A stretch of 51,237 nucleotides of DNA from an uncultured Desulfobulbia bacterium (GTDB lineage Bacteria > Desulfobacterota > Desulfobulbia > Desulfobulbales > CAZDYX01): assembly GCA_964509775.1 (NCBI GenBank), contig CAZDYX010000001.1, positions 10,597 to 61,833 of the forward strand, in the 5' to 3' direction. The notes under the pieces were generated by a model that saw only the letters and a program-made list of their open reading frames with translations, made no database searches and had not been told where the DNA came from. Positions 1-23,765 of this stretch are shown here, piece after piece; position 1 is the first letter of the stretch, and the number at the start of each line of letters is the position of its first letter. Made by a program: the position numbers and the translations under genes.

Positions 1-1770
1 AAAAAACCTAGAGAGTTATATGCCCGTACTCAAGCAACGGAATCACTTTTAGGAATTGAACCCTTTGTGGATAAGTTTCTTGATTCTGAAGAAAACCACA
101 AATACCTTGAAATGTTAGGGGTTGCCTTCACACCGTTAAGCCCTGAAAGCCTAATCGAAAGATTGCGAATTTTGAAAAACGCAACAGGTATCCCTAAAAG
201 GGAAATCGAAAATTGCTATCGTAGGCTAGATAGTTATATTCAAGAGGCATCAACTGAGGATCTTGAAATATTGAAGACTGCATTCGAAGTTGAAAAACTT
301 ATTCTTCATAATGCAGATGATTGGGTAAATTCCTCAGGGGTATTCCTTCATGCGAATGATGAAGATGCCCCCGGTGCACCATTGATTAGGGATTCTGTAA
401 AAGAACTAGCATTATGGGAAAGGTTAAGAATTCCAACCAGACCCGATTATGAATTCGTTATTAAATGGCTAGGAACGCTACCTAGCAACCAAAAATTAGA
501 TGAGTCAGACCTCAAACGAGTCTGCTCAATCTTGGCTAGGCATGGCTATAGGGTCATTGAAGAATGCAGGAGTGTACTTAACCTTATGGGAGAATGGGTA
601 CCTCTTGACAGCATTCAGTACTGGATTTCTAAATCCTTAGAGACTCCATTCAGCGATGATCTATACGCGGGTATAAGAAGAAAAACTGCGGACCTGCGTA
701 GTCTGCCAGAAGGATCTAAATTACCGTCCGGGCTTGAATCATGTCGATCGCTAATCGAAAAAATAGAAAACCGAATTCAACCTTCTATAGAAAGCATTGC
801 CGAAAAAGCAGTTGAGGTTTCTTGGATAACCACATGTGGGGGATTCCTTGAGAGGGTGATACTAAAAGACCTAGAAATGGTAAAAGAGGAGAATATCCTC
901 AACCTTGCGAAGAGGATGTCAAAGACACGAGTTGCTGAAGTGGATACGATTAAATCCACCCCCTACCTTAATGGAACTCCCGCTGGTTTGCAAAAGCAGA
1001 TGGAGGCTGTATGGATTAATGAAATCCTCTGTATAATAAGGATGAAGAATGCAAGAAAAGCAAAAGTTCTTCCGAGAGAACTTGGAAATACCTTCCAGAA
1101 TCAAGAAATAGTTGATGCAATTGTTTATTGCTGTGATAGAACAGAACAGACCATAAAGGACTACTTTGAGTCTAACTTCCAGTTAGATCCTGTGTCTGAT
1201 AACCAACCGGTGGAACGTCAGAAAGAACCAAAAAAAAACCAATCTGAAGATACTTCCTTTTGGAAAACACCAAATATAGAAGGAAATCCCATTGAATTAG
1301 CTACTGAACATGAAAATGAGGGTAACTCAACAAGTACAATAGAAAAGGAAGCTTCTGGTGTAGTTGAACATCATCCAGTTCATCCTGAACATAAAGCGGT
1401 TCCGCTCATCGAGCGATTTGCTAGAGCTCTTGGGTATATCAGGGAATCAGATCAAAAATATAAGCATCAAGACGGAAAATGCATTATTAAAAATTCTGAA
1501 TCTAGATTCCCATGGGAACTTGTAGATAAATCAGGAAATCACATAAAATCCTATTATCCTAAAGAGTGTTGCCTTCGTGCGGGATCTATCGAAATTCCGG
1601 CAGATGTATGGAATCTCCTTGAAGAAGACCCTATCCACTACTCCCTCATCCTAATAGAAGCAGATAGAACCCCATTCGAGTATACAGGAGAACTTCTCAT
1701 CAAGCTTAAGCAGAAAGGTGACATCACCCTATTCCCGGCTAGTTACAATATACTGGCTAATGATCGGTAA
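1..1770 (+). CDS. C-terminal ~590 aa of a large uncharacterised protein; the 5' end lies outside the window
   Basis: Frame 1 is open from nt 1, with no stop before the GTG at 67 used by the ORF track, so the gene is cut by the window edge. I recognised no catalytic motif. A charged low-complexity linker (..PVERQKEPKKNQSEDTS..ENEGNSTSTIEKE..) precedes a ~120-aa C-terminal module. Its layout only weakly recalls DUF3883/NOV-C-type ends of bacterial sacsin-like ATPases, which is speculative. The region is AT-rich compared with the methyltransferase downstream. Confidence 0.6.
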   Translation, partial: KKPRELYARTQATESLLGIEPFVDKFLDSEENHKYLEMLGVAFTPLSPESLIERLRILKNATGIPKREIENCYRRLDSYIQEASTEDLEILKTAFEVEKLILHNADDWVNSSGVFLHANDEDAPGAPLIRDSVKELALWERLRIPTRPDYEFVIKWLGTLPSNQKLDESDLKRVCSILARHGYRVIEECRSVLNLMGEWVPLDSIQYWISKSLETPFSDDLYAGIRRKTADLRSLPEGSKLPSGLESCRSLIEKIENRIQPSIESIAEKAVEVSWITTCGGFLERVILKDLEMVKEENILNLAKRMSKTRVAEVDTIKSTPYLNGTPAGLQKQMEAVWINEILCIIRMKNARKAKVLPRELGNTFQNQEIVDAIVYCCDRTEQTIKDYFESNFQLDPVSDNQPVERQKEPKKNQSEDTSFWKTPNIEGNPIELATEHENEGNSTSTIEKEASGVVEHHPVHPEHKAVPLIERFARALGYIRESDQKYKHQDGKCIIKNSESRFPWELVDKSGNHIKSYYPKECCLRAGSIEIPADVWNLLEEDPIHYSLILIEADRTPFEYTGELLIKLKQKGDITLFPASYNILANDR

Positions 1771-1785
1771 AATCGTTGGAGTTTT

Positions 1786-2595
1786 ATGAGTAATACGATT
1801 ACATCCGTAAACCCTTTTGAAGCAACGCTTCAATCTCTAGGACGTGCTTTCACAGTCCGAGATATCGCGACATATGACCTTATCACTTGTCGGGAAGATG
1901 ATTCCATCGATAAAGTATTAAAGATTCCTGACTATGAAGGGCTCGACTATATCCCTGTGAAGAATCAATTGGGAACGATTATCGGGATACTAGAGCGACC
2001 AAACATGGAATTAGCACCCACATCCGCTGGTTCGAAGATGCGACACTTAGACGACGAAATTCTAGCTTCAGCAGATACCTCATTGATACCCGCACTCGAA
2101 CGGCTTGTGAATACAGGATATCTACTTATATTGGACCAGTGCCGGGTTTCTGGAATAGTGACCAAGGCAGATATCCAGAAAATGCCTGTGGTTCTTCTAG
2201 CATTTACTTTTTTAGTACATATTGAATCTCTCATGGCGAATGCCATTACGTCGCGTTGTAAGAATGAACAGGAATGGATTGAGCTTCTTAGTAAAAAGAA
2301 TCAGCATCAACTAAAGCTTAACTATGATAGACAAGTTGGGTTAGGGTTTGATCTGCCGCGCATTGTTTTAACCGGATTCCTACAAAAAATGATACTCTTA
2401 ATCAAGTTATATAAATTGCCAATAGAGGATTCCATTGAATTGGATGAATTGAAGGAGTTGCGGAATCAAGTGGCTCATTCTCGATTTACCATACAGAACG
2501 ATGAAGATGTTCGACTGTTAGTAAAAAGAATAAACCTATCAAAGAAGTGGATCGATTTTATACCTGTTATGATTAATAAAGGATTAAGCTCATGA
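1786..2595 (+). CDS. CBS-pair domain protein with a C-terminal Swt1-like HEPN domain (R-x4-H motif)
   Basis: The N-terminal half has a CBS-like pattern ([37 protein letters not shown] and [18 protein letters not shown]). The C-terminus carries [12 protein letters not shown] (RNQVAH at nt 2461-2478), the HEPN Rx4-6H signature in the same context as the HEPN of the DUF499 protein. A GGAG-like RBS lies upstream, and the start is 15 nt after the preceding stop. Confidence 0.65.
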
Positions 2596-2822
2596 GTACT
2601 CCTAAAAAACTAATCGAAGTAGCCCTTCCTCTGGAAGCCATCAATAGTGCCAGCGCCAGCAAAAAATCAACCCACCGCAGTCATCCGAGCATTCTCTCTC
2701 TCATTGACAAAGCGGCTACTGGCGGCAGCACAGGCGGTAATCTTCGTGCAGATGGTTGACGATCCCTACTCATATCTCTGCCTTTTCCCGAGCAAGAATC
2801 CCAAGGGGAAGGAGCCGGTTTG
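2592..2822 (+). pseudogene. Frameshifted, truncated N-terminal remnant (~first 85 codons) of a second DUF1156 methyltransferase gene
   Basis: It translates as [33 protein letters not shown], then after a +1 shift ..[38 protein letters not shown]. This is collinear with the intact methyltransferase N-terminus [75 protein letters not shown]. Its ATG overlaps the CBS-HEPN stop (ATGA). Confidence 0.75.
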
Positions 2823-3785
2823 ATGAGTACTACTCATGTGTTATTCCCCAATCCCTCCAAGTTCATCAGCGCATTATGTGATCCTGGCAATCTTTTCATC
2901 CTTGGCGCTGGAGCCTCTTCAGAGTTTATGCCACCTGGCAACGCATTCTTACGGAATATTGGAACCCTCTGGATAAAGGGTGAAGGGTTCTCCCCCAGGT
3001 CCAGCATTTCAAAGATATCCAAGCGTCTTCTACAGAGCAGATGCTTCCAGGATGGACTGGATGCAGCACTTATCGGACTCATCCCGGACCGGGGAGCTGA
3101 GTGGATAGTGTCCTACTTGCTATCACCCTCTACGAAAGTCAAACCGTACTTAAGCTATGAAGTGTTTAAGAGAATAGCACGGCCTTTTACTATAGCTAAC
3201 TACAATCATGATGCGCTTGCTAGGCTTTCTCTTGGAGGTTTATCGGAGACCAGGATTCTGGAACCTCACGGTTCAACCTATCCCGGGCTTAAGGAACTTT
3301 TCGATGAAGTGGAAATACAGGAGTATGCCGATATGGATATTCCTGCACCCAATGCTGATAACTTCATCATGCTTAAGCCAGAACCGTCAATATTTGCACA
3401 CTCTCCATTCTTCAATCTACTCGATCGAACCAGAAGCCGAGTTCAGAATGTGATTTTTATCGGATACTCATTCAGCCTTCAGCAAGATGGTATAAGAGAT
3501 GACGCGGTTTCGTATGACTACTTCACCGACTACCTCCAAGGCAAGAGAACTTTTGTGGTTATGCCGGAGCCGCACAAACTGGTTGAAGAGTTGTCTGGAG
3601 AATTGCATACTCGAGACGTTTATGGTATTCCTCTCCGCTGGGATCTCTTTTCACAGGCAGTGTTCTCCAGCGAAGTGGTCTTTAGCCCTGTCACTCGTGC
3701 TACCTGTCTCGCTTCGATACCCAAACTAATATCGATCTACCAAGAGTTGCTAGAAACAGCCCAAAGCAGAGAAGGAATCAAATGA
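2823..3785 (+). CDS. Stand-alone SIR2-like (SIR2_2 / ThsA-DSR type) domain protein, ~320 aa
   Basis: LFILGAGAS (nt ~2914-2928) matches the glycine-rich NAD-binding start of SIR2_2 domains. ANYNHD (3198-3212) matches the TxNYD motif carrying the catalytic Asn. EPHGS (3261-3275) matches the catalytic His motif, and VIFIGYSFS matches the conserved GYS strand. The stop overlaps the methyltransferase start (ATGA at 3782-3785). The ORF track starts at TTG 2820; I prefer ATG 2823. Confidence 0.7.
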
Positions 3786-6694
3786 GTACTCAAAATACAT
3801 ACCCTAAGAAACTAATCGAAGTAGCCCTCCCCCTGGAAGCAATAAATATTGCCAGCGCCCGCGAGAAGTCTATCCGTCATGGTCACCCTAGTACCTTCCA
3901 TCTCTGGTGGGCTAGGCGACCTCTTGCGGCGGCCCGGGCAGTCATTTTCTCGCAAATGGTGGACGATCCTTCCTCGCATCCTGATCTGTTCCCCACTGAG
4001 AAGGCCCAAGAGAAGGAGCGCCAGCGTCTTTTCCGCATCATTGAGGACCTGGTGCTCTGGGAGAATACGACTAATGAAGAAGTCCTCCAGCGGGCACGGG
4101 ATGCGATCTGGGGAACCTGGCGCCGCACCTGCGCAGCGAATGCCGACCATCCGCGCGCCAAGGAATTATTCGACCGCAACAAGCTCCCGGCGTTCCACGA
4201 TCCCTTCGCAGGCGGTGGTGCCCTACCGCTTGAAGCCCAGCGTCTGGGCTTGGAGAGCTATGCAAGCGACCTGAACCCTGTGGCGGTCCTCATCAACAAG
4301 GCGATGATTGAGGTTCCTCCTAAGTTCGCCGGGAAGCCTCCAGTGAACCCTGAGACAAGGAAAAAGAAAGACTTGATCGAACGGGAGTGGAAGGGAGCAC
4401 AGGGCCTCGCCGAAGACGTCCGCTACTACGGCAAGTGGATGCGAAACGAAGCAGAAAAGCATATTGGCCATCTCTACCCCAAAATCGAGGTGACGGCGGA
4501 TATGGCCAAGAACCGGCCCGATCTCAGACCCTATGTCGGCAAGAAGCTCACTGTTATCGCATGGCTTTGGGCACGGACGGTAAAGAGCCCAAACCCTGCA
4601 TTCAGCACTGTCGATGTGCCCTTGGCTTCGACTTTCATGCTCTCGACAAAAGCGGGGAAGGAAGCGTATGTCGAGCCGGTGATCGAGGACACAGGCTATC
4701 GCTTCACTGTTAAGGTGGGGAAGCCAAAAGATGCCGAAGCAGCGAAGAGCGGGACTAAGTTATCACGCGGTGCGAATTTCCAATGCCTGATGTCCGGAAT
4801 CCCAATTCCGAGTGACCATATCTACAACGAGGCAAACGCCGGTAATATGGGTGCTCGGCTCATGGCGATTGTTGCAGAGGGCGATCGAGGTCGAGTTTAT
4901 CTCGCACCGACGGCGGAACATGAAGTTATCGCGTCGAAGGCAATGCCCGAGTGGAAACCTGAGGTAATGATGCCCGAGAATCCGCGCTGGTTCTCGCCAC
5001 CCCTCTATGGCCTCAAGACCTACGGTGACCTCTTCACTCCCCGCCAACTCGTGGCGCTGACAACCTTCTCAGACTTGGTGGGCGAAGCTCTTGAGCAGGT
5101 GAAACATGATGCCATCTCTGCCGGCTTGCCTGATGATGGTAAACCTCTGCGGGATGGAGGGACTGGGGCATCGGCCTATGCAGAAGCGGTGGGGGTGTAT
5201 CTAGCGTTTGCATTAAGCAAGCAAGCGGACCTTGGGAATAGCTTGTGTCGATGGGAGCCAATCGCGCAGTGCCCGCGTCAGCTTTTTGGTCGCCAAGCTA
5301 TACCGATGATATGGGACTTTGCTGAAGGCAATCCGCTTGGAGAGAGTTCAGGTGCATGGATTGTCTTTATTGATGGAATTGTAAAGGCTTTTTCAAAAAC
5401 GTTTGAGTTTATTTCATCATCGGCATATGGTTACTCACAACAAGCAGATGCTGGCCGACAAGAAATATCTAAAGGCAAAGTTGTATCAACTGACCCTCCG
5501 TATTACGATAACATTGGCTATGCAGACCTTTCGGATTTCTTCTACGTTTGGTTACGGCATACTCTAAAGCTAGTTTTTCCGGATCTCTTCACGACACTTG
5601 CGGTTCCAAAGGCTGAAGAATTGGTTGCCACGCCTTATCGACATGGAAGCAAAGAGAAGGCAGAAACCTTTTTTCTTGATGGAATGACACAGGCCATGCA
5701 TCGCCTTGCCGAGCAGGCGCACCCTGCGTTCCCAGTCACTATTTATTATGCCTTCAAGCAGTCTGAAAGCGATAGCCAAGATGGTACTTCGAGTACCGGC
5801 TGGGAGACTTTTCTTGACGCTGTTATTCGCGCTGGTTTCTCTATGACTGGCACTTGGCCGATTCGTACAGAAAATGACAGTCGTATGATTGGTCAAGGTA
5901 CCAATGCACTCGCCTCCAGTATCGTACTTGTCTCTCGTCAGCGTCCAACTGATGCACCTACCATCACACGCCGCGACTTCCTTTCTGCTCTCAAGACCGA
6001 ACTCCCTCCCGCCCTCGTAAAACTCCAGAAGGGTAATATCGCCCCAGTTGACCTCGCCCAATCTGCCATCGGTCCCGGCATGGCCGTCTTCACCCGCTAC
6101 GCTAAGGTCATCGACGCTTCAGGGAAGGCCCTTTCGGTCCGCGAAGCCCTTGCCCTCATAAACCAGACCCTCGACGAGGCCCTCTCCCAGCAGGAAGGCG
6201 ACTTCGACGCCGACAGCCGCTGGGCTCTCGCCTGGTTCGACCAGTTTGGCTTTGCCGAGGGAGAGTACGGCGTAGCTGAAACTCTCTCCAAGGCCAAGGA
6301 CACCTCGGTATACGGCATGGTGGAAGCGGGCATTCTCGTTTCGGGAAAGGGCAAGGTTCGGTTATTGAAGCCGGTGGAACTCGCCTCCAACTGGGATCCC
6401 ACAACCGATGCCCGCCTCACCAACTGGGAGACGGTTCACCAGCTCATCCGAGTACTGGAGGTTGGGGGCGAAGGTGATGCAGCCGAACTTGCGCGAAAGC
6501 TTGGCAGCAAGGCCGAGGCTGCACGGGAACTTTGCTATCGACTCTATACCCTCTGCGAACGAAAGAAGCGGGCACAGGAAGCCCTCTCCTATAACGGTCT
6601 TGTGCAGAGTTGGCCGGAGATCATGAGGCTGGCGACGGAGGGTGGGAAACTAAAAGCGAAGAGCGGAGAGTTGTTCGAGGATGCCGAGGAGTAA
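3782..6694 (+). CDS. DUF1156-family DNA methyltransferase (N6-adenine/N4-cytosine type), 970 aa
   Basis: The N-terminus [41 protein letters not shown] is characteristic of DUF1156. The SAM-binding motif I is [14 protein letters not shown] (nt 4199-4219). Catalytic motif IV is [23 protein letters not shown] (DPPY at nt 5492-5503). Confidence 0.9.
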
Positions 6695-6697
6695 GCT

Positions 6698-6820
6698 ATG
6701 CCAGAAGACAAGCGGTTTATATGCCTGGCAAATTCCAGGAAACGCAAGGGATTCTGCATTATAGGTATCGTTTTATTGGATGGCGCACCTGATGGATGGA
6801 TCCGACCAGTAAGCTCATGA
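6698..6820 (+). pseudogene. 40-codon N-terminal fragment of a dual-OB-domain-type protein
   Basis: MPEDKRFICLANSRKRKGFCIIGIVLLDGAPDGWIRPVSS* matches my recollection of the conserved start (..CLANSRK..G.C.AG......WIRPVS) of much longer proteins. Here it stops after 40 codons. Confidence 0.4.
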
Positions 6821-6975
6821 AACAACGGCAGATCGAGACATTTGTTGACTCTGAGATCATCCGCGACGGTTGCCTACTATGCAGCGAGGATGCTCCAACG
6901 CATTGCCATCGGAGACTCGTTGCCGAGTATCTCCAGGATGCGTGGAAGGACATCGATATTATTCACCTGAAGTGA
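6817..6975 (+). pseudogene. C-terminal fragment of a DUF488-family protein
   Basis: ..DGCLLCSEDAPTHCHRRLVAEYLQDAWKDIDIIHLK* matches the conserved DUF488 C-terminus (LLCxExxpxxCHRxlvaeyL...v.HL). The N-terminal two thirds of the family are absent. Confidence 0.55.
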
Positions 6976-6985
6976 GGCTAGCCCC

Positions 6986-7684
6986 ATGTCGAAACCTGGT
7001 ATAGAAGCACTGGACATGATAGGAAAAAGTGCTATTATTCCTATCATGGTAAAGAAAGAGGAATATCGACAAATCATTTCAAATAAAGTTATTAAGAGAG
7101 TGCATCATCTTGGTCGTGGTTCCGTATTTTCGGCAAGTAAATTCGCCGATATCGGCCCAGGGGCTGCGATCGACCTGATCCTTTCACGTCAAGCAAAGCG
7201 TGGTACGATCCGTCGCATTGCCCGGGGACTCTACGACTACCCTGTCAAGGATCCGGAGTTGGGACTGCTGAGCCCTTCTGTCGAGGCTATCGCGAAGGCA
7301 CTGTCTGAAGCCGGACGCCTGAAGCTTCAGCCATCGGGAGCGTATGCAGCCAATCTTCTTGGATTATCCGAGCAAGTGCCGATGAAAATCGTCTTTCTTA
7401 CCGACGGGGCTTCGAGAAAGGTCAAGGTTGGGAACCGCGAGATCATCCTCAAGCGAACCACCCCACGCAACATGGCCGCAGCGGGTCGCCTGGGCGGCCT
7501 TGTAATACAAGCCCTGCGATACCTTGGGCAAGATTCCGTCGATGCCGAAGTTGTCGCCAGGTTGAAACGAGCCGTTCCTCCTGAAAAACGTGCGGAGGTG
7601 GTCAAAGACTCCCTTTCGGCTCCAGTCTGGATTAGGACCCTCCTTTCCCAGGTTTTTGCGGAAAAAGGTGGGTCACATGGATGA
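6986..7684 (+). CDS. abiEi: AbiEi-family (DUF6088-like) type IV antitoxin / transcriptional regulator
   Basis: ..VFSASKFADIG..AIDLILSRQAKRGTIRRIARGLYDYP..LSPSVEAIAKAL..LQPSGAYAANLLGLSEQVPMKIVFLTDG is the typical AbiEi pattern. The gene is paired with an AbiEii gene through an 8-nt overlap. The start is uncertain (ATG 6986 with a GAGG RBS, or ATG 7046). Confidence 0.8.
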   Translation: MSKPGIEALDMIGKSAIIPIMVKKEEYRQIISNKVIKRVHHLGRGSVFSASKFADIGPGAAIDLILSRQAKRGTIRRIARGLYDYPVKDPELGLLSPSVEAIAKALSEAGRLKLQPSGAYAANLLGLSEQVPMKIVFLTDGASRKVKVGNREIILKRTTPRNMAAAGRLGGLVIQALRYLGQDSVDAEVVARLKRAVPPEKRAEVVKDSLSAPVWIRTLLSQVFAEKGGSHG

Positions 7685-8699
7685 ATTCCATGCGTTGCCT
7701 GAAGCGAGGCGTCAGATCATTTTTCAGGAAGCCGGAACTCGCCTCGGGTTGCCTGCCATTAGCATCGAGAAGGATTGGTGGGTAACCCGAGTCCTCGAAT
7801 CCCTCTTTTCGTCACAGGAAATAGCACCTCTTGTTACATTCAAGGGAGGCACTTCGCTTTCGAAGGCGTTCAACCTTATCAGAAGATTTTCTGAGGATAT
7901 TGATCTGGTGATAGATCGCAAAAGCCTGGCCATACCAGAAGATCAGGATCCTGAATCCGCACCATCTGGACGGAAGAGAAAACTCGGAGTGAAGCAGGTC
8001 AAGCATTCATGCGCGGCATGCATCAAGGACAGGATTCTGCCAACGCTGCGGGCGGATTTTGATCTGCATGGATTGTCTGATGCGACACAGATTGAAGTAG
8101 ACCCCCTTGATCCGGAACAGCACACGGTTCTGGTGCAGTATAAGAGTTTGTTCACATCAGGAGCAGGTAGATACACACGCCCAGCGGTAAAGGTGGAGTT
8201 GGAAGCCCGATCGGAAGATGAGCCTTCTCTGCAACGTGAGATCCAATCAATCGCAGCACAGGAATTTTCCGATGCCTCCTGGGCGCATGCAGTTTCCGTG
8301 AGAACCCTAGATCCAGCAAGAACTTTCATCGAAAAGGCGTGCCTGTTGCACGAAGAAAACATGCGACCACCTGATAAAAATATAAAGGTTGCTATGTCCC
8401 GGCATATTTACGATTTGCACTTGATGATGGATTCAGACTTTGGGAAACGTGCCTGTGTAGACCGGCCCTTGCTCGACAGGGTTTTAAAGAACCGACGGAT
8501 CTACTTCGAATATACATGGCTTGATTATGAAAAATTTGGCCCTGGTTACTTCAAGTTTGTACCTCCAGCAGATCGGATAGGTTTCTGGCGCGATGATTAT
8601 AGAAGCTTGTGTGAAAACATGGTTTTCGGCGAAGCTCCGGAATTTTCTGATTTGATGGATTCGCTTGCTGCGCTGGAAATTAAATTGAATAATAAATAG
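7677..8699 (+). CDS. abiEii: AbiEii/AbiGii-family nucleotidyltransferase toxin (DUF1814)
   Basis: IEKDWWVTRVLESLF...FKGGTSLSKAFNLIRRFSEDIDLVI is the hallmark N-terminal nucleotidyltransferase motif. I place the start at ATG 7677 (MDEFHALPE..), overlapping the abiEi stop, rather than the track start at 7590. Confidence 0.85.
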   Translation: MDEFHALPEARRQIIFQEAGTRLGLPAISIEKDWWVTRVLESLFSSQEIAPLVTFKGGTSLSKAFNLIRRFSEDIDLVIDRKSLAIPEDQDPESAPSGRKRKLGVKQVKHSCAACIKDRILPTLRADFDLHGLSDATQIEVDPLDPEQHTVLVQYKSLFTSGAGRYTRPAVKVELEARSEDEPSLQREIQSIAAQEFSDASWAHAVSVRTLDPARTFIEKACLLHEENMRPPDKNIKVAMSRHIYDLHLMMDSDFGKRACVDRPLLDRVLKNRRIYFEYTWLDYEKFGPGYFKFVPPADRIGFWRDDYRSLCENMVFGEAPEFSDLMDSLAALEIKLNNK

Positions 8700-8715
8700 G
8701 AAAACGAGGAAAAAA

Positions 8716-11700
8716 ATGGCAATTTCCAATTACGAACGTGTCGGAAAGTCGATGGAACTACTCAAGGCAGGCTTGGCTCCCTTCGCCGAACGGGAAGTCT
8801 TCGCCAGGCTCCGCACCATTGACGCCCAAGCTATGATTGAAGACTTCGCATCAGCTGACAGGATGCTGGCCGGCAAGGAGATGGCTGACTGGGATGTCCA
8901 GGCGCTTTTAAACTTCCTGTGGACACGCTGGAATGAAGTATTCAGCAGGACTCTCGGCAATGCTGAGCGCAGCCTTGTCAGTGAACTCCGGGAGCATCGT
9001 AACAGATGGGCCCATCAGGCGAACTTCTCAAGCGATGACGCTTATCGTGCCCTGGACTCTGTCGGGCGCCTCCTTACCGCAGTCTCTGCCCAAGAAGCTG
9101 ATGAGCTCGAGAAAATGAAGAACGAGCTCTTGCGGCTCCGTTTCGACGAGCAGGTGCGCAACGAGCGTCGCAAGGGCCTTAGCTCTACCATTGAAAGCGC
9201 GGTAACCGGCACCTTAAAGCCCTGGCGCGAAGTCGTGACGCCACATCGCGATGTGGCTTCTGGGAAATACCAGCAGGCTGAATTCGCGGCTGATCTGTGG
9301 CAGGTCCATCTGGGCGAGGGCTCCGATGAATATCGGAATCCTGCCGAATTCTTCAGAAGAACCTATCTCACCAACAGCCTCAAGGGGCTTCTGGTGAGCG
9401 CGATCCGGCGACTCACGGGCTCAGGCGGGGATCCTGTCGTCCAGCTTCAGACCAACTTTGGCGGTGGCAAAACGCACTCCATGCTTGCCCTTTATCACCT
9501 TTTCTCCGGGGTGAGTCCCGTTGATCTCATCGGGGTAGACGAAGTGCTGAAAGAGGCTGCTGTCTCGAACGTACCGAAGGCCCGCCGCGTCGTGCTGGTT
9601 GGCAACAAGATCTCTCCGGGCAATCCTTCCACCAAGATCGACGGAACGGTCGTGCGCACACTCTGGGGAGAGCTTGCCTGGCAGCTTGGTGGCAAGAAAG
9701 CTTTCTCCCGCATCGAAGCCGATGATAAAAATGCAACGAGCCCCGGAGACGTCCTTCGTGAACTATTCAACGAGTACGGGCCTTGTCTCATCCTTATCGA
9801 TGAGTGGGTTGCGTACGCCCGTCAGCTCCACGACCAGGGTGATCTGCCGGCAGGTGACTTCGAAACGCATTTCAGCTTTGCCCAGGTACTCACGGAGTCC
9901 GCCAAGCTGGCTAAAAACTGCCTCCTCGTAATAAGCCTTCCGGCATCAGATGATTCAGGCTCCCCCCATACCCTCGCCGATGATGCCGAAGTCGGTGGAC
10001 AGCGCGGCCGGGAAGCCTTGGTTCGGTTGCGCAATGTCATCGGCCGTGTCGAGTCTTCGTGGCGGCCTGCGAGCGCAGAAGAAGGCTTCGAAATAGTCCG
10101 TAGGCGGCTTTTCGAGCCTCTGAACGATGCAGCCCACTTCAAGGATCGCGACATCATCGCCCGGGCTTTTTCCAGCTTCTACCAGAGCCAGCAACAGGAA
10201 TTCCCTCCAGAAAGCCGCGATGCAGATTACGAAAAGCGCATCAAGGCAGCCTATCCCATCCATCCTGAGATCTTCGACCGCCTCTATACCGACTGGTCCA
10301 CGCTGCTCAAATTCCAGCGTACGCGGGGCGTACTGCGCCTCATGGCTGCGGTCATCCATAGCCTCTGGGAAAAAGGCGACAAGAACCCGCTTATCATGCC
10401 CGCCAACATCGCCATCGATGATGCCCGAGTCCAATTCGAAATGACGCGTTATCTCTCCGACAACTGGGTGCCCATCATTGAGAAGGATGTGGACGGCCCC
10501 GGGTCCCTTCCCCTGCGCATCGACGCCGAAGTGCCAAACCTTGGCAAGTTTGCCGCTGCACGGCGCGTGGCGCGTACCATTTATCTCGGCTCCGCACCCA
10601 CCGCCGACGCAGCCCATCATGGTATCGAAGATCGCCGCATCAAGCTCGGCTGCGTCATGCCCGGCGAGTCGCCGGCAGTATTCGGCGATGCGCTCAGGCG
10701 CCTTTCAGGCGCTGCCACCTACCTGTACCAGGATGGTTCCCATTTCTGGTATTCTACCCAGCCGACGGTCACAAAGCTTGCAGAGGACAGGGCAGAGCAA
10801 CTCAAGCGTGAACCGGACAAGGTCATCCAGGAACTAGACAGCAGGCTGCGGATTGATCTCAAGCAGAAGGGTGACTTCGAACGCATCCATCCTTTCCCGC
10901 ATGGCGGTCAGGATGTCCCCGATGACAGGGATACGAGGCTTGTAGTCCTAAGTGTCGATCATCCGTACATCAGAGATTCGGACAACGCAGCCGAAGCCGA
11001 AGCTCGAAAGATTCTCGAATACCGCGGCACATCGCCACGGCTGTACCGTAACAACCTCGTGTTCCTCGCTGCCGACAAGAACCGCCTCCAGGATCTCGAT
11101 GAGGCAACCCGCAGATTCCTTGCATGGTCTTCTATCCTTGCGGAGAAGGATCAGCTGGACTTGAGTCCCTATCAGGTTAAGCAGGCGGAACAGCAGTTGA
11201 AGACTGCCGACACTACCGTAACAGTACGGCTGCCGGAGACCTATCAATGGATTCTTGTCCCCGGCCAGACTACCCCGCAGGCTCCTGTCGAGTGGCATGC
11301 GATCAAGGTTTCAGGGTCCGAGCCTCTCGCCGTCCGTGCCTGCAAGAAGCTAAAAAGCGAAGAGTTCCTCATCATCAATTTTGCGCCTACGAGATTGCGG
11401 ATGGAATTGGATCGCATTCCCCTTTGGCGCGGGAATGATGTGTCGGTGAAGCAGCTCTCAGAAGACTTCGCCCGGTACCTATACCTGCCAAGGCTCCTGA
11501 CATCCTACACCTTGGCAAAGAGCATCGGGGATGGATTAGGTCTTCTGATGTGGGAACAGGACTCCTTCGCCTGGGCTGATGAATGGGACCAGGCAGCGCG
11601 AAGGTATCGAGGCTTGCGTTCCGGTTCGAATTTGATCTGTCCTGACCCTGATTCGACTGGCCTTCTAGTTAAGCCTGAGGTTGCCCTGAAACAGATGGAA

Positions 11701-12240
11701 CAGGAAACAAAACCCGTCAGGATCGAACTCAGCCCCGAGCGGATCGAACTTTTACCATCCGCTACCATTCACTTCACCTTGAAGGGTTTTGACGCGGATG
11801 GACGCCCCGTTCAGGTATCGAAGGCTTCCTGGTCGGCGACTGGTGGCCAGATCGATGCATCCGGGCTTTTTACTGCAGGAGATGCGTTCGGGCAGTTCAC
11901 AGTCGATGTGGAAATCTTCGGACTGCATACTCGTTCGATCGTCTCGATCCATGATTTGGCACGACCGCCGATTCCGGAAAAACCCTTGATACCTGAGACT
12001 CCACGCCTCAAGCGATTCCACGGTACCGTAGTGCTCAATACCGAACGTGTCGGCCGGGATGCAGGACGCATCGCCGAGGAAATCATCTCACATCTTGCCA
12101 TCCAGGCAGGAGCAAAGATAACCGTCACTCTTGAGATAGATGCCGAATTACCATCCGGTGCCGGTGATTCTCTCATGAGAACAGTGACTGAAAATGCCCG
12201 TACCCTGCATTTTAGCAATCAGGGGTTTGAGAGGGAGTAG
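8716..12240 (+). CDS. Swt1-like HEPN + DUF499 (BrxC/PglY-like) P-loop ATPase with a C-terminal Ig-like (Big_2-type) segment, 1174 aa
   Basis: The N-terminal HEPN is SELREHRNRWAHQANFSSDDAYRALDSVGRLL (RNRWAH at nt 8998-9015). Walker A is NFGGGKTHS (GGGKT at nt 9460-9474) and Walker B is CLILIDEW, both typical of DUF499. Near the C-terminus, IELSPERIELLPSATIHFTLKGFDADGRPVQVSKASWSATGGQIDASGLFTAG resembles bacterial Ig-like Big_2 domains. Confidence 0.85.
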   Translation: MAISNYERVGKSMELLKAGLAPFAEREVFARLRTIDAQAMIEDFASADRMLAGKEMADWDVQALLNFLWTRWNEVFSRTLGNAERSLVSELREHRNRWAHQANFSSDDAYRALDSVGRLLTAVSAQEADELEKMKNELLRLRFDEQVRNERRKGLSSTIESAVTGTLKPWREVVTPHRDVASGKYQQAEFAADLWQVHLGEGSDEYRNPAEFFRRTYLTNSLKGLLVSAIRRLTGSGGDPVVQLQTNFGGGKTHSMLALYHLFSGVSPVDLIGVDEVLKEAAVSNVPKARRVVLVGNKISPGNPSTKIDGTVVRTLWGELAWQLGGKKAFSRIEADDKNATSPGDVLRELFNEYGPCLILIDEWVAYARQLHDQGDLPAGDFETHFSFAQVLTESAKLAKNCLLVISLPASDDSGSPHTLADDAEVGGQRGREALVRLRNVIGRVESSWRPASAEEGFEIVRRRLFEPLNDAAHFKDRDIIARAFSSFYQSQQQEFPPESRDADYEKRIKAAYPIHPEIFDRLYTDWSTLLKFQRTRGVLRLMAAVIHSLWEKGDKNPLIMPANIAIDDARVQFEMTRYLSDNWVPIIEKDVDGPGSLPLRIDAEVPNLGKFAAARRVARTIYLGSAPTADAAHHGIEDRRIKLGCVMPGESPAVFGDALRRLSGAATYLYQDGSHFWYSTQPTVTKLAEDRAEQLKREPDKVIQELDSRLRIDLKQKGDFERIHPFPHGGQDVPDDRDTRLVVLSVDHPYIRDSDNAAEAEARKILEYRGTSPRLYRNNLVFLAADKNRLQDLDEATRRFLAWSSILAEKDQLDLSPYQVKQAEQQLKTADTTVTVRLPETYQWILVPGQTTPQAPVEWHAIKVSGSEPLAVRACKKLKSEEFLIINFAPTRLRMELDRIPLWRGNDVSVKQLSEDFARYLYLPRLLTSYTLAKSIGDGLGLLMWEQDSFAWADEWDQAARRYRGLRSGSNLICPDPDSTGLLVKPEVALKQMEQETKPVRIELSPERIELLPSATIHFTLKGFDADGRPVQVSKASWSATGGQIDASGLFTAGDAFGQFTVDVEIFGLHTRSIVSIHDLARPPIPEKPLIPETPRLKRFHGTVVLNTERVGRDAGRIAEEIISHLAIQAGAKITVTLEIDAELPSGAGDSLMRTVTENARTLHFSNQGFERE

Positions 12241-12273
12241 GGATATAAGAGCGATATTGATAGGTTGTAAGCG

Positions 12274-13700: not shown

Positions 13701-15450
13701 CAAACCCCGACGCCCGGCGGAGCCTGATTGAGGACCAGCCAATAGAGGCCTAGCTGCTGGGTGGCGGCGAGAAATTGCTCGAAGTCGACGAGCTTGCGTA
13801 TATAGCTGTTGGCGCCTAGCTCGTAGCTTGCAAGAACGTCCCTGTCCTCCTTAGAGGAGGTCATTATCACCACGGGCAATAATTTGATCTGCGGATTCCC
13901 CCTGATACCCTGCAGGACCTCAAGACCGCTCATCTTGGGCAGGTGGAGATCCAGCAACACAAGCTGGGGCATGTCTTCGGAGCAGTTCACTGAGTACCGT
14001 CCCGTCGACGTCAGGTATTCGACAGCCTCGGCCCCATCTCGCGCGACGACTATTTTATTTCCCATCTTGCCAGCCGCCCAGGTCTCACCGCGGTGGCGCT
14101 GCACGGCCCGCTTGATGCTCGCCAAGCCGATGCCGGTGCCCGGATACTCGTTCTAAGTGTGAAAGCGCTAGAAGGCGGTGAATAGCTCGTCCTTTAACCT
14201 GTGGTCGAATCCCGTGCCATTGTCCCGGACGAAGAACACCGTCCCCTTCCCACTGTCCTTGAACGAGTCGACGCTTACCATCGCCTCGCCTGACATGGAG
14301 GAGAATTCCCACGCGTTGTTCAAGAGGTTGCCAAAGACTATGCGCATGAGGCGCTGGTCGCAGACCGCGGCTTTCCCGGGTTCCACGGTCCACTGGACTT
14401 TGCGTCCCGGATTCTCCCTGGCCAGGTCTTCCATGACGCTCAAGACCATTCCGCTGATATCCGTGGATTGGAAGTCCATAGGCGAGCGGGTGATCTGGGA
14501 CAGAAAAAGCATGTCTTCTATGATCCGTCCCATGCGCTGCGCCGCATTCCTTATCCTCTCAAGGTAGGCACGCCCTTCTTCGGGGATCAGCTCGCCGCAG
14601 TCTTCGAGCTCCTTGTTCGCCAGGGGAAGCTCGACTGTCCTTTGTTCGATGCGCTGATCCATGGTGGCGTTGAGATCCTGCAATTGCTGCTTCAGCAGCT
14701 TCCTCTTCGATATGTCCGCCACGAATATGTTTAATGTCAACAGCCTTTCCATCCTCATAGACCAGCTGATCCATGCAGGACGCGGCGGCCATGTTCTCGA
14801 ACATTCCCCTAAATTTCGCTAATCCTGAGTTCCTGCTCCGTCCGTTTCCTCGCCGCTATGTCTTCGTCCAGGTCGGAGGAGAGTCTTTTGTTCATCATCA
14901 GGGAGAGGGAGAATGTGAGGGCGATAAAAAGCATCTGGTTAGCAAGGAGTAGTGCCGCGTCGAGGATTCCTGATTTCATGTAGTCGTTTCCGACCGAGCC
15001 CAAAAGGCTGTTGGCTATGCTGATGGCGCTGAAAAGGCAGAATAGTCAAAATACCGCTGCGGCGACCTTTGCCGTTTTGCGCAAGGAAGGCTCGGGCTTG
15101 GAAAGGAGCAGCCACGCGCACTGGGCGCAGATGAAGATCAACGCTGATGCTGTGTTTATGTTGCGCGCTGCCAATACGGGGCGGACAACAGAGAAATACG
15201 CAAGGATCAGCGTATAGATGGCGAGCATCGCCCAGTTATGTGCTTGCCGGCCTTTTATTCCAAGGAATTGTTCGAGGCCGATAAAGAGTATCATCGCACC
15301 TGCTATCGTAAGGGAGCTAGCGACCACCATGGAAAGGAAATCGGGTACCATTCCTCGCAGGCTTATGAGGAGTATGGACAAGAATTGCATTGTGAATTCG
15401 AGCGTCCATAATGCCAATCCGGAGAATTTCTGGCGGTTTTTCAACTGCAA
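13700..15450 (-). pseudogene. Decayed hybrid sensor histidine kinase (membrane sensor, PAS remnant, DHp lacking the H-box, HATPase, truncated receiver)
   Basis: The gene is split over at least 4 ORFs in different frames. These are a TM-rich N-terminus (15046-15450), ..ARKRTEQELRISEI (14809-15003), a PAS tail plus ..ADISKRK..ERTVEL..ANKELE running directly into ..EEGRAYLERIRNAAQRM (the SHDLRxPL H-box is deleted), and NLLNNAWEF..FVRDNGTGF. It then shifts frame to ..IGLASIKRAVQRHRGETWA fused to a receiver that lacks its first beta-strand and acidic pair (13700-14125). Confidence 0.7.
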
Positions 15451-15981: not shown

Positions 15982-16004
15982 TTTAGTCATGCATGGGGTA
16001 GATC

Positions 16005-16865
16005 ATGTTTAATAATTCCATTAACTATGTATTTAGACATTCCAAAATTGCTTTTCTTACAAAGCATAAAAAAGAAGTTGAAGTTTTCCCATTGATAAAA
16101 AACTACTTAGGAACAGAAATTGTACTCTTCGACGGTTATGATACCGATGAATTAGGTACTTTTACAAGGGAAAAAAAGAGAAATCAATCCCAACTAGAAA
16201 CAGCACGATTAAAAGCGAAAAAAGCAATTGAAATAAGCGGATACCAGATTGGAATCGGTAGCGAAGGTAGTTTTACCACGGATCCATACATGGGAATAAT
16301 ACCGTGGAATATTGAAATGATAGTCCTATATGATAATAAAAACAAAATAGAAATAGTCGGTACTGAACAGAGACCATATAAAAGTTTACAGAAAAGTATT
16401 ACTACTAAAGAAGAACTAATTTCATTGGCCGAAGACATTGATTTCCCAAAAAACAACTTAATCCTTAGGCCAAATAATGAAAATGATTCGATTATTAAAA
16501 AAGATTTCTTAAGCTTGGATGATCTTTTTAAGGAATTTGATTTATTAATAAAAAAATCAATTACGGGAAAAGTTTTCGTTGAAAATGATCATAGAGCACA
16601 CCGTTCCGTTAGTAGAATGGAAGCAATTCGATATGCTACCATTGATTTGATCATTAAGTGCCACTCCTTCTGTCCCGAATGTAATGCTCCAGGGTTTTCT
16701 GTTAGTCGAGGTGAAGGTAGTTTACCATGTAAATACTGTGGTGAAGAATCAGAAACTTTTAAATACATAGTATATAAATGCAATAAATGCTCTTTTGAGA
16801 AAAGGATTGAAAGGACAGATATTACAAATGTTGATCCACAATATTGCAATTATTGTAATCCTTAA
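16005..16865 (+). CDS. Hypothetical protein, 286 aa, very AT-rich, with two C-terminal CxxC...CxxC zinc-ribbon motifs
   Basis: It is a clean ORF. The cysteine motifs are CPECNAPGF..CKYCG and YKCNKCSF..CNYCNP. It may belong to an uncharacterised DUF family, but I cannot confirm that. Its composition differs strongly from its neighbours. Confidence 0.6.
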   Translation: MFNNSINYVFRHSKIAFLTKHKKEVEVFPLIKNYLGTEIVLFDGYDTDELGTFTREKKRNQSQLETARLKAKKAIEISGYQIGIGSEGSFTTDPYMGIIPWNIEMIVLYDNKNKIEIVGTEQRPYKSLQKSITTKEELISLAEDIDFPKNNLILRPNNENDSIIKKDFLSLDDLFKEFDLLIKKSITGKVFVENDHRAHRSVSRMEAIRYATIDLIIKCHSFCPECNAPGFSVSRGEGSLPCKYCGEESETFKYIVYKCNKCSFEKRIERTDITNVDPQYCNYCNP

Positions 16866-16929
16866 CTGGCGTTGACACAAAGAATCGCCACATATCGCAA
16901 AGGAGTAGATGATGCTGGTTTTGGTCGCA

Positions 16930-17275
16930 TCCGATCGAAGGGTGACGAAGCTCTTTCCGGTGGTAATACCACGCAGGGGATGATGGATCGGTACCGCATT
17001 GCCAAAACGCAACCGTTGGCCGATTTTTACCGACATTGACTATCACCGTAAAAAATTTTACTACCGAGATGACAAACCATAATGTTCAACAGGGTGATAT
17101 GCAGGGCTAGACTGCCATCACTAAAGAGCATGTGCAGAACAATGCAAGTGTACGCGACATGCTTGGCCAGCGCGGCATCAAACCAGAAAAGCTTCCACCG
17201 TAAGAGGATATTAAAAAGCTGGAACGTCGAGTAAAGACCAACGAGAAGAAGCTTGAAAAAAGTCGGGCAAGTTGC
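16930..17275 (+). pseudogene. Remnant of a DNA-damage-inducible protein D (DinD)-like gene, interrupted by stops and frameshifts
   Basis: TAITKEHVQNNASVRDMLGQRGIKPEKLPP*EDIKKLERRVKTNEKKLEKS resembles the DinD C-terminus (..H.evg.kVR.ti.elGGtmPEdLPtpesIKKLE..). It has in-frame stops at 17108-17110 and ~17200, and the upstream pieces are in other frames. Confidence 0.45.
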
Positions 17276-19613: not shown

Positions 19614-20639
19614 GTGAAAATTACCATCACAGGCGGCTACGGCAATATTGGAATCTCCGTGATAGAGGAATGCCTCAGGCGCGGCCACAAGGTCACGGTG
19701 TTCGACCTGGATGGCGACAGGTCCAGAAAGTTTGCCCGGCGGTATTCTAAGAAGAATGTCAGGACTGTTCTTGGCGACATACGGAAGTATTCGGATGTGC
19801 ACGGCGCCGTCGCAGGCCAGGATGCGGTCATCCATCTCGCCGCCATCCTCCCTCCCTTGAGCGACAGGAACCCTGGCTTATGCAGGGAGGTGAATGTAAG
19901 TGGCATCGAAAATATCCTGAAGGCGATCAAGGCCGAGGGAAACACGGCAGCCCTGGTGGAGGTGTCCTCGGCCAGCGTGATGGGACCCACCCAAACCCAG
20001 GCGCCGCCGGTGCGGCCGGATGATCTTGTCGCGGCCACCGACACGTACTCGACCACAAAAATCGAGGCCGAAAGGCTTGTCGAGGAATCTGGAATCCGGC
20101 ACTGCATCCTGCGCCCCGCCGCTGTCCTGCCCACGAACATTTACATTAAATATTTCCTGAACATGATCAAGGTCATGTTCGACATGCCGCTTTCGGCGCG
20201 ATGCGAAATCGTCCTTGACATCGACGTGGCCCACGCCCTGGTTTCCGCTGCGGAAAGCCTGGCTGGCGCCAACCATGGCGGCGCCCTTTGCGGCAGCTCC
20301 CTCTGCGGCAGACGGGGTTTCATCGCCGGCGGCGGAAACCAGGGCTGCCAGCTCACCAACGGAGCGATGCTCAAGGCCGTGTTCGCCCAGGTGGGGCTGC
20401 CCTTTCCGCGCGAGGAATTATTCACCCACCACATCAACGGATATTACCTCGATTGGTACGACACCGAAGAAATCCAAAACCTCCTTAAGTACCAAAACCA
20501 CAGCTTCGCCCAATGGAAAGGAATAATCGAGCAAAAACTTGGCCCCTACCGCCCCCTAATCACCTTGCTGAACCGACCAATCCTGAAGTGGCTTGAAAAG
20601 CAATCACGGCATGGAGGAGCTCGAAGCTTCCATCCATAG
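19614..20639 (+). CDS. NAD-dependent epimerase/dehydratase family (extended SDR) protein
   Basis: MKITITGGYGNIGISVIEECLRRGHKVTVFDL is a Rossmann GxxGxxG motif, and YSTTK is the catalytic YxxxK. The GTG start comes immediately after the uvrA-like stop. Confidence 0.8.
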   Translation: MKITITGGYGNIGISVIEECLRRGHKVTVFDLDGDRSRKFARRYSKKNVRTVLGDIRKYSDVHGAVAGQDAVIHLAAILPPLSDRNPGLCREVNVSGIENILKAIKAEGNTAALVEVSSASVMGPTQTQAPPVRPDDLVAATDTYSTTKIEAERLVEESGIRHCILRPAAVLPTNIYIKYFLNMIKVMFDMPLSARCEIVLDIDVAHALVSAAESLAGANHGGALCGSSLCGRRGFIAGGGNQGCQLTNGAMLKAVFAQVGLPFPREELFTHHINGYYLDWYDTEEIQNLLKYQNHSFAQWKGIIEQKLGPYRPLITLLNRPILKWLEKQSRHGGARSFHP

Positions 20640-20640
20640 A

Positions 20641-20672
20641 CAGGAGGACAGGATTTTCAGGATTCACGGAGT
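20641..20672 (-). repeat. Copy C of the dispersed AGGAT-9-mer intergenic repeat
   Basis: The + strand reads C AGGAGGAC AGGATTTTC AGGATTCAC. The reverse complement shares the identical 16-mer ATCCTGAAAATCCTGT with copy B. Confidence 0.6.
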
Positions 20673-20762
20673 GAACTTATAATTGGAGAAGGATAAGCAA
20701 AGTGGAGTAAGAGATATTCAAGTTCATGTAGCCAACAGCCATTTTACCTTCGGGTAGATGCC

Positions 20763-21791: not shown

Positions 21792-21850
21792 CCTATAACC
21801 TCGGTGTCCTATACTACTTGAAAATCCTATGGTCTACAACGCGATTTCGC

Positions 21851-23736: not shown

Positions 23737-23765
23737 ACTCCTATCCCCTTGACGATGTAGTGATA

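Follow-up and report, generated by a model that had tools for sequence, protein, structure and literature searches.

A probable CBS-HEPN effector gene and a sacsin-like ATPase gene in the interior of an Hma operon from an uncultured Desulfobulbia bacterium

Genes at the locus

We analysed a 51-kb stretch of DNA from an uncultured Desulfobulbia bacterium (contig CAZDYX010000001.1), called the window over its whole length, and studied its region 1-2595. This region carries the 3' part of a gene for a large sacsin-like GHKL ATPase and, behind it, an intact gene for a protein of 269 amino acids (aa) in which a CBS pair is followed by a probable HEPN domain. Both genes lie within an operon of the Hma (helicase-methylase-ATPase) type, as defined by the authors of PADLOC (bioRxiv 10.1101/2024.01.29.577857). 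L001, a 19-kb contig described below, carries the orthologous genes. The features of the locus that bear on this assignment are the following.

1-1770, forward strand: open reading frame 1 (ORF1), the C-terminal 589 aa of a ~1390-aa sacsin-like GHKL ATPase, TmtA/Tiamat-like (frame open to the window edge; orthology with L001)
1786-2595, forward strand: CBS-HEPN gene, intact, 269 aa, a distant DS-11 relative (DS11_antiphage match; homologues; ratio of nonsynonymous to synonymous substitution rates, dN/dS; AlphaFold 2 (AF2) model)
1849-2181, forward strand: CBS pair (Bateman module), residues ~22-132 (Pfam CBS; Foldseek; invariant D129)
2182-2592, forward strand: all-helical C-terminal domain of HEPN type, residues 133-269 (sub-threshold Pfam matches; hhalign; non-significant Foldseek matches)
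2461-2478, forward strand: Rx4H motif, R226-N-Q-V-A-H231 (invariance in the family)
2592-2819, forward strand: decayed 5' remnant of hmaB (DUF1156 methylase), ~codons 1-75 (alignment to the start of L001 hmaB)
3782-6694, forward strand: intact hmaB, a DUF1156 N6-adenine methyltransferase (PADLOC HmaB, 1583 bits)
8716-12240, forward strand: hmaC, with a Swt1-like HEPN domain and a DUF499 ATPase (PADLOC HmaC, 1137 bits; Pfam HEPN_Swt1 and DUF499)

ORF1, read in frame 1, extends from base 1 over 590 codons to its stop at 1768-1770, the ATPase domain of the gene being upstream of the window edge. Its stop is separated from the ATG of the CBS-HEPN gene at 1786 by 15 nucleotides (nt), which contain a GGAG 5-8 nt before the ATG. 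This arrangement had been described in an earlier, sequence-only reading of the region, which proposed a second defence module made of these two genes and a decayed methyltransferase gene, and the arrangement itself was confirmed. Comparison with L001 revealed purifying selection on both genes, with dN/dS values of 0.24 for ORF1 and 0.16 for the CBS-HEPN gene, so both genes are real. Their GC content is 0.40 each (1-1770 and 1786-2595), compared to 0.55 for the intact hmaB and 0.51 for the whole window; the AT-richness that had been pointed out is real, but the contrast is one of ~40% with 55%, not with 60%.

The TGA of the CBS-HEPN gene overlaps an ATG at 2592 (ATGA), which opens a 55-aa ORF with a weak match to the DUF1156 N-terminus (15.1 bits). 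The reported overlap with a decayed DUF1156 gene therefore stands for the overlap itself, but what has decayed is only a frameshifted 5' remnant of ~230 nt and not a whole gene. A promoter and terminator scan of 1-4000 detected zero terminators and fewer promoter-like sites than expected by chance, which is consistent with co-transcription of the genes but is no evidence for it.

The region belongs to the Hma operon that continues downstream

In an index of 5.8 billion proteins one homologue was 90% identical to the CBS-HEPN protein of the window, and the best contig for it was L001; a scan of a genome collection with the window protein found no close relative. L001 aligns with positions 7-2765 of the window at 86.5% nt identity. 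Its gene order is HmaA, the 1390-aa ATPase, CBS-HEPN, HmaB, HmaC, an HNH gene, further genes and an integrase, with PADLOC scores of 1673 bits for HmaA, 1585 bits for HmaB and 1117 bits for HmaC. HmaA of L001 is an SNF2 helicase with a NOV_C nuclease. Relative to ORF1 the HmaA slot lies beyond the window edge, and HmaA was seen there in L001 and in all seven other ATPase loci described below. Given the L001 gene order, and the HmaB and HmaC genes in the window itself, region 1-2595 is interior to, and makes up the 5' half of, one Hma operon that continues downstream with hmaB and hmaC and is cut by the window edge. The idea of a separate second module with a methyltransferase of its own is thereby replaced by that of a single operon.

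Extra genes embedded in Hma systems, many of them defences, have been reported in 62.7% of 1,485 distinct systems, which came from 234,099 genomes (Payne et al., bioRxiv 10.1101/2024.01.29.577857). Operons of this type entered the literature in 2013, as a HEPN-DUF499 / SNF2-DUF3883 / methylase restriction-modification (R-M) system (PMC3710099). They were later given the name of Type-1 (DUF499-centred) BREX-related systems, and the embedded 'backup' modules of such systems include stand-alone HEPN effectors (PMC12839542). The locus resembles these operons in having HmaB and HmaC in the window and HmaA in the orthologous contig, with all genes on one strand, and in having defence genes embedded between the hma genes, here an AbiE pair between hmaB and hmaC; a stand-alone HEPN gene also falls among the kinds of embedded backup effectors already described. 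It differs in that the slot between hmaA and hmaB holds two extra genes and a recombination scar. The text and supplementary text of bioRxiv 10.1101/2024.01.29.577857 and PMC12839542 contain no mention of CBS or of a sacsin/GHKL ATPase in Hma loci.

Recombination history of the locus

The hmaB remnant has lost 2 nt, is split between reading frames and stops prematurely; it aligns with L001 as part of the 86.5% block (7-2765). It is 71% identical to L001 hmaB, while the 5' ends of the two intact hmaB genes are 84% identical to each other. Synonymous divergence (dS) from L001 was 0.29-0.42 for the ATPase and CBS-HEPN genes and 1.43 for hmaB. In turn, window positions 6813-12246, comprising AbiE and hmaC, showed 96% nt identity to positions 18648-24081 of another contig, L009, the ATPase of which is only ~42% identical (aa) to that of the window. 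Because of this jump in dS, the L001-like 5' half and the L009-like (96%) 3' half, the locus is recombinant, and these alignments place the breakpoint between the two halves within the initial ~230 nt of hmaB. An independent 2.9-kb contig of the European Nucleotide Archive (L115) shows the same junction and arrangement.

The 9-mer ATGAGTACT occurs in only three copies in the 51 kb, at 2592, 2823 and 3782, which are the starts of the hmaB stub, of a 321-aa ORF and of the intact hmaB. By chance 0.22 copies would be expected, and three copies were reached in 0/100 shuffles. Such a distribution suggests that cassettes were inserted or exchanged precisely where hmaB starts. Recombination broke the coupling between CBS-HEPN and hmaB in the window, leaving the ~230-nt hmaB stub, and brought in the 321-aa ORF, a different hmaB allele, AbiE and hmaC. 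What had been taken for a decayed private methyltransferase is best described as the recombination scar of the 5' end of the resident hmaB. The two further features of this part of the window are listed here.

2820-3785, forward strand: 321-aa ORF between the hmaB remnant and the intact hmaB (no library match)
6986-8699, forward strand: AbiEi-like (DUF6088) and AbiEii toxin-antitoxin pair, embedded (Pfam matches)

The stop of the 321-aa ORF overlaps the start of the intact hmaB. Searches in Pfam, PADLOC, NCBIfam and PDB sequences gave no match, and the ORF is another candidate embedded effector. Motifs seen by eye (GAGxS, NYxHD, HGS) had raised a SIR2 identity for it, which these four libraries did not support. 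AbiEii of the embedded pair between hmaB and hmaC is a nucleotidyltransferase toxin gene, and the pair is a known kind of Hma-embedded system.

Exchange in the operon centre is also apparent from the comparison of L001 with L008, another Hma contig. The aa identities are 93% for HmaA and 95% for HmaC, 78% for HmaB and 44% for the GHKL ATPase, and CBS-HEPN is present in L001 only. As the ATPase is 44% identical beside HmaA and HmaC at 93% and 95%, it is exchanged like a cassette, and the middle of the Hma operon behaves as an exchangeable region. Recombination swaps the operon middle between otherwise nearly identical loci, which fits the centre being a cassette slot for accessory effectors.

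Domains and conservation of the CBS-HEPN protein

The CBS pair named in the sequence-only reading was confirmed by Pfam (PF00571; 32 bits with a gathering cut-off of 24, hence above threshold) and by structure. In the AF2 model of the protein (predicted local distance difference test score, pLDDT, 94.7) the N-terminal half, with two tandem beta-alpha-beta-beta-alpha units, superposes in Foldseek on solved CBS pairs (3fv6, 2p9m, 3kpb, 5g5x) with a probability of 1.0 and template modelling (TM) scores of 0.69-0.76. With the full-length model Foldseek matched CBS structures only, and PDB sequence searches with the single protein and with the family profile likewise detected CBS domains only. A GIVTKAD motif of the ribose-binding type lies within the CBS pair and includes the invariant D129. 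The motif G-h-h-T-x-S/A-D with this invariant aspartate is the classical ribose-contacting element of CBS domains.

An exhaustive phmmer search showed that the protein belongs to a family of 773 representative clusters (at 50% identity) with E<=1e-3, 304 of them with E<=1e-10. Nearly all members are 250-290 aa long and align end to end. An alignment of 108 members, of which 95 match the CBS model, showed D129, E147, K201, R226 and H231 to be invariant, and the motifs GIVTRSDLLKLPVR, DK and LRNxxAH define the family.

The C-terminal half is probably a HEPN domain, judged by motif and profile. The ELRNQVAHS stretch that had been called a Swt1-like HEPN motif is present, and its R226 and H231 are invariant in 108/108 aligned members and in 43/43 C-terminal domains; for the fold, 'probable' is the appropriate word, with Pfam scores below threshold. 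The model of the isolated domain (pLDDT 93.4) is all-alpha, with R226 at a helix end and H231 just after it. Three Pfam HEPN families match 12, 6 and 1 of the 108 members, 19 members altogether, at E<0.01 and sub-threshold. An hhalign comparison with the Swt1-like HEPN domain of HmaC gave a probability of 64% (E 6.5e-5) over 31 columns centred on the motif. HEPN proteins account for ten of the 50 top Foldseek matches of the isolated domain, all non-significant (7bxo, 2hsb, 7ae6, 6m6u, 6m6w, 5yjc, 4nqf). In PADLOC, the 108 members gave only two weak matches, to CARF+HEPN models of the Csx1/Csm6 type, and none matched the HEC-01 to -09 and PDC models.

The NCBIfam model DS11_antiphage (NF053863) matched residues 28-245 of the window protein at profile positions 81-298 (E=2e-7, 30.4 bits), and 50 of the 108 members match it across both domains (best E 7.2e-10). 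DS-11, from DefensePredictor, is an experimentally validated one-protein defence of CBS and HEPN whose ligand is not known; its protection is abolished by mutation of the adenine-contacting tyrosine of the CBS pair (Y157) or of the HEPN catalytic residues (PMC13092281). Even earlier, a 2013 catalogue listed CBS-HEPN fusions of the Swt1/Abi2 clade and proposed that RNA cleavage in them is governed by the sensing of nucleotides (PMC3710099). The fusion, which had been thought not to be a described system component, is thus on record in both of these papers; the CBS-HEPN architecture, DS-11 defence and the embedding of genes in Hma are all published.

The window protein shares with DS-11 an N-terminal CBS pair plus, at the C-terminus, a HEPN domain with catalytic-type R and H residues in a single polypeptide of ~270-300 aa, sequence similarity over both domains, and the Rx4H residues that DS-11 requires for defence. 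Its family is distinct and much larger, with the 773 clusters given above; the window protein lacks the ~50-residue N-terminal extension that the profile offset implies, and the family is preferentially embedded in Hma and coupled to hmaB, whereas DS-11 is a stand-alone E. coli gene. The proteins of the 2013 catalogue (such as alr3009 and Pelobacter gi 118580987), compared here by description, similarly combine CBS with a Swt1/Abi2-like HEPN domain with an RNxxxH-type motif and follow the same nucleotide-sensing logic, but these examples are not linked to Hma/R-M operons and some carry HD.

Genomic context of the CBS-HEPN family

Loci were retrieved with a conserved peptide (IVTRSDL[LQ]K / SDL[LQ]KLPVR) from an 18-sequence subset, which yielded 20 genome and 80 metagenome loci. 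The search for the architecture elsewhere that the sequence-only reading had called for thus led, beyond the 773 clusters, to a defined context: among 45 loci with usable flanks on both sides, 19 have CBS-HEPN in an Hma-type operon, and HmaB follows it in 21/62 loci with downstream sequence. In Hma-linked loci CBS-HEPN always lies between hmaA and hmaB, and in 24 of 28 such loci its stop falls no more than 60 nt from where hmaB starts (median gap -2.5 nt), while the distance to hmaA is variable (median 425 nt). Divergent DUF499 or DUF1156-like genes adjoin CBS-HEPN in L022, L081, L103 and L105. Non-Hma neighbours include Type IIG R-M, DrmMI, MADS, Old/GajA and PD-T4-6 proteins, as well as ordinary metabolic genes. 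Most deep branches of a rough neighbour-joining tree hold Hma-linked members, and the family is distributed patchily across unrelated phyla.

In several Hma loci the space between hmaA and CBS-HEPN is filled by another embedded gene, for a recurrent ~690-aa protein (L016, 7852-9921; also L038, L039 and L065). It resembles 'RecG-related' proteins with AlbA_2/Schlafen-like and HATPase_c_4 domains (PDB 3lmm, 2kyy).

We also considered CBS-HEPN as a substitute for a missing HEPN domain of HmaC. This was rejected, as most loci with Hma and CBS-HEPN keep the N-terminal HEPN domain of HmaC.

The tight spacing to hmaB, with the stop/start overlapping or nearly so in the 24 of 28 loci while the hmaA distance varies, could mean that CBS-HEPN is a dedicated sensor-effector subunit of Hma/BREX-related systems coupled to HmaB rather than an autonomous hitch-hiker. 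It might, for example, sense S-adenosylmethionine (SAM) and S-adenosylhomocysteine (SAH) or some other adenosyl metabolite and be triggered once the anti-restriction of a phage has knocked out the methylation-based system. The Hma-linked deep branches and the adjoining divergent DUF499/DUF1156-like genes would agree with such a role, several non-Hma neighbours are systems containing DNA methyltransferases, and the CBS pairs of MJ0100, which bound SAM and methylthioadenosine (MTA), are among the best structural matches (3kpb, TM 0.75); CBS pairs with other ligands, however, match equally well in many cases. A dedicated subunit is also hard to align with the 26 of 45 informative loci that lie outside Hma in heterogeneous neighbourhoods, with DS-11 working as a single gene (PMC13092281), and with closely related Hma loci that differ in having CBS-HEPN or not (L001 and L008), and tight coupling may simply reflect operon insertion. 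We regard both the integrated role and the SAM/SAH example as unlikely.

That the protein is instead a non-catalytic or housekeeping regulator, acting in RNA stability or metabolite sensing without a role in defence, appears most improbable. A ligand-responsive role in RNA stability was proposed for CBS-HEPN fusions by Anantharaman et al. 2013 (PMC3710099), and ordinary metabolic genes make up about half of the non-Hma neighbours. The invariance of R226 and H231, the strong enrichment of the family in Hma loci and beside other defence genes, its homology to the validated DS-11 and its patchy distribution across unrelated phyla all speak against a housekeeping function.

The large sacsin-like GHKL ATPase

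The 589-aa fragment in the window gave zero matches in the Pfam, PADLOC (including TmtA) and NCBIfam libraries. It is 81% identical (aa) to the C-terminus of the 1390-aa L001 protein, and this full-length orthologue matched Pfam HATPase_c_3 (30.6 bits) plus SACS, NCBIfam P_loop_sacsin (NF047352; 75.7 bits over residues 43-119, exceeding the cut-off of 50) and nine PADLOC TmtA (Tiamat) models, the best with E=1.7e-52 over residues 39-370 and another with 119 bits over residues 42-917. Through this orthologue the suggestion that the upstream gene encodes a large ATPase was borne out.

More than 1657 full-length homologues of ~1400 aa align end to end with 37-45% identity, and their source entries name them 'sacsin N-terminal ATP-binding-like domain-containing protein'. 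A word-indexed homologue search with the 589-aa fragment detected no homologue; this was a false negative, as tblastn with the fragment finds the family, and is probably due to a linker rich in lysine, glutamate and asparagine (fragment residues ~395-465) that filled the candidate list. The 589 aa of the window are well conserved in the family and end, after the low-complexity linker, in a distinct C-terminal domain of ~120 aa, in which inspection by eye revealed no canonical PD-(D/E)XK motif.

We inspected seven ATPase loci from the top of the hit list (L008, L009, L011, L113, L114, L116, L117). An HmaA-type helicase lies upstream of the ATPase on the same strand in all seven, with a 4-nt stop/start overlap in six. 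HmaB and HmaC, intact or decayed, lie downstream in six of the seven; the remaining locus, L114, contains the helicase-ATPase pair only, without HmaB and HmaC. No CBS-HEPN gene was found in any of the seven loci. With all seven ATPases behind hmaA and none with CBS-HEPN, the ATPase is therefore tied to the helicase and not to CBS-HEPN, the partner that the sequence-only reading had assigned to it.

In L116 (12253-18102), a Brucella pecoris contig, hmaB and hmaC are present in several broken frames, while helicase and ATPase are intact. The locus gives the impression of an Hma system in decay.

A GHKL ATPase directly upstream of CBS-HEPN was found only in the lineage of the window and L001 and in the short contig L106, where a GHKL C-terminus directly precedes a divergent CBS-HEPN gene; most Hma-linked CBS-HEPN genes have no GHKL neighbour. 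This comparison bears on the model in which the ATPase, CBS-HEPN and a private methyltransferase once formed a separate three-gene module. The three features lie side by side in one orientation, a low GC content of ~0.40 is common to the GHKL and CBS-HEPN genes in the window and in L001, L106 repeats the order of the first two, and GHKL-HEPN fusions exist elsewhere in paraMORC-Ymh proteins and sacsin (PMC3710099). In L001, however, the supposed private methyltransferase is the sole hmaB of a canonical HmaA-HmaB-HmaC operon, and what the window keeps as a remnant is just its initial ~230 nt; the seven loci above have the ATPase but no CBS-HEPN, and CBS-HEPN occurs without the ATPase in every locus with HmaA directly upstream. 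The three-gene module is already contradicted by L001 and the comparative loci, and we give it hardly any credence.

With Tiamat and sacsin the ATPase shares an N-terminal sacsin-type Bergerat ATP-binding domain and a very large size. Its genomic partner is a helicase carrying a NOV_C nuclease domain, a point of likeness within the Tiamat/sacsin/NO VEIN group, and eukaryotic sacsin likewise has a HEPN domain at its end. It differs from Tiamat in that the TmtA models match no more than the N-terminal third to two-thirds of the protein, and in that the family is not stand-alone, its members always lying behind an HmaA-type helicase (7/7 loci).

The ATPase might still be a Tiamat-like single-gene defence that works autonomously and is only housed within Hma, as AbiE is, with no functional partnership with HmaA. 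The TmtA models do match the full-length orthologue (E=1.7e-52), known systems are commonly embedded in Hma loci (bioRxiv 10.1101/2024.01.29.577857), and the low ATPase identity beside the highly similar HmaA and HmaC of L001 and L008 has the look of an exchanged cassette. These observations are countered by the invariant position of the ATPase gene immediately 3' of hmaA with the 4-nt overlap in six of the seven loci, by the helicase and ATPase standing as a pair alone in L114, and by the partial extent of the TmtA matches (residues 39-370, or 42-917 at 119 bits). We hold an autonomous element to be rather unlikely. Two readings fit the ATPase best: an optional fourth component coupled to the helicase, or a Tiamat-like gene that is tightly embedded.

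Proposed function and significance

Taken as a whole, we consider it probable that region 1-2595 is the middle of an Hma operon in which a helicase-partnered sacsin-like ATPase is followed by an embedded, DS-11-like and probably nucleotide-gated CBS-HEPN RNase. Several observations weigh against this reading or parts of it. Pfam HEPN models stay below their gathering scores (HEPN_RiboL-PSP 17.2 vs 28.4, HEPN_Swt1 13.4 vs 27.5), and none of the Foldseek matches of the C-terminal domain on its own is significant (best E 1.5, TM <=0.41); the HEPN call is therefore based on the motif, on how well it is conserved and on profile matches that are weak. With 30.4 bits the window protein is far from the equivalog cut-off of 260 bits and is not a DS-11 equivalog. 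At three positions that are nearly invariant in the family it also carries a non-consensus residue (S128A, L133M, R136V). The peptide-based retrieval of loci may over-represent one sub-clade, the carriers of SDL[LQ]KLPVR, and the ATPase context comes from only seven loci, all top-ranked hits.

By analogy with DS-11, the CBS-HEPN protein is most likely an adenosyl-ligand-gated HEPN RNase that acts as an embedded abortive-infection or backup effector. A ligand-gated HEPN RNase, as the sequence-only reading had proposed, is the most reasonable mechanism for a protein in this defence context. The protein would dimerise through its CBS and HEPN domains, as expected from the biochemistry of DS-11, HEPN and CBS proteins. 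Each CBS pair would bind an adenosyl ligand, with ATP/ADP/AMP, SAM/SAH and diadenosine tetraphosphate (Ap4A) as candidates, and a change in this ligand during infection would release or activate a composite Rx4H RNase site. Cleavage of RNA would then stop the infected cell, which would add abortive infection or a backup layer to the Hma machinery that targets DNA. The gene is normally translationally coupled to hmaB.

A stronger version would make CBS-HEPN an obligate, methyltransferase-coupled sensor-effector of Hma/BREX-related systems, in which the CBS pair reads an adenosyl metabolite tied to methylation or to the ATPases of the system (e.g. SAM/SAH) and frees the HEPN RNase when a phage disables the primary restriction layer, for instance with a SAM lyase. 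We think this quite unlikely. If it were true, the obligately coupled protein would be a built-in guard against anti-restriction, and bacterial operons of sacsin-type GHKL ATPase and HEPN could be a prokaryotic antecedent of the GHKL...HEPN architecture of eukaryotic sacsin.

For the probable embedded effector, the DS-11-like family of 773 clusters lies outside all PADLOC models and has no above-threshold whole-protein model in Pfam or NCBIfam. CBS-HEPN is common at the hmaA/hmaB junction and is usually translationally coupled to the methylase gene; as a common, methylase-coupled occupant of this junction, the family lends itself well to a search for the adenosyl ligand of CBS-HEPN defences. 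The conserved ~1400-aa sacsin-like GHKL ATPase behind the helicase in some Hma/BREX-related operons suggests a four-gene Hma variant or a Tiamat-helicase partnership. Modestly new are the size of the DS-11-like family, its strong, position-specific coupling to hmaB and the helicase-coupled sacsin-like ATPase in a subset of Hma systems. Neither the family, nor the four-gene form, nor the exchange in the operon centre would overturn current views of bacterial immunity.

Remaining parts of the window

The remainder of the window is ordinary chromosomal DNA, encoding a UvrA-like ABC protein, a sugar uptake cluster, a GH31 protein and a KdpD-like kinase. The kilobase with the lowest GC content in the window is 16001-17000 (GC 0.34). 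It holds a DUF6671 gene (16005-16865), which lies just downstream of a truncated histidine-kinase ORF (14168-14758, minus strand), and may be another acquired segment.

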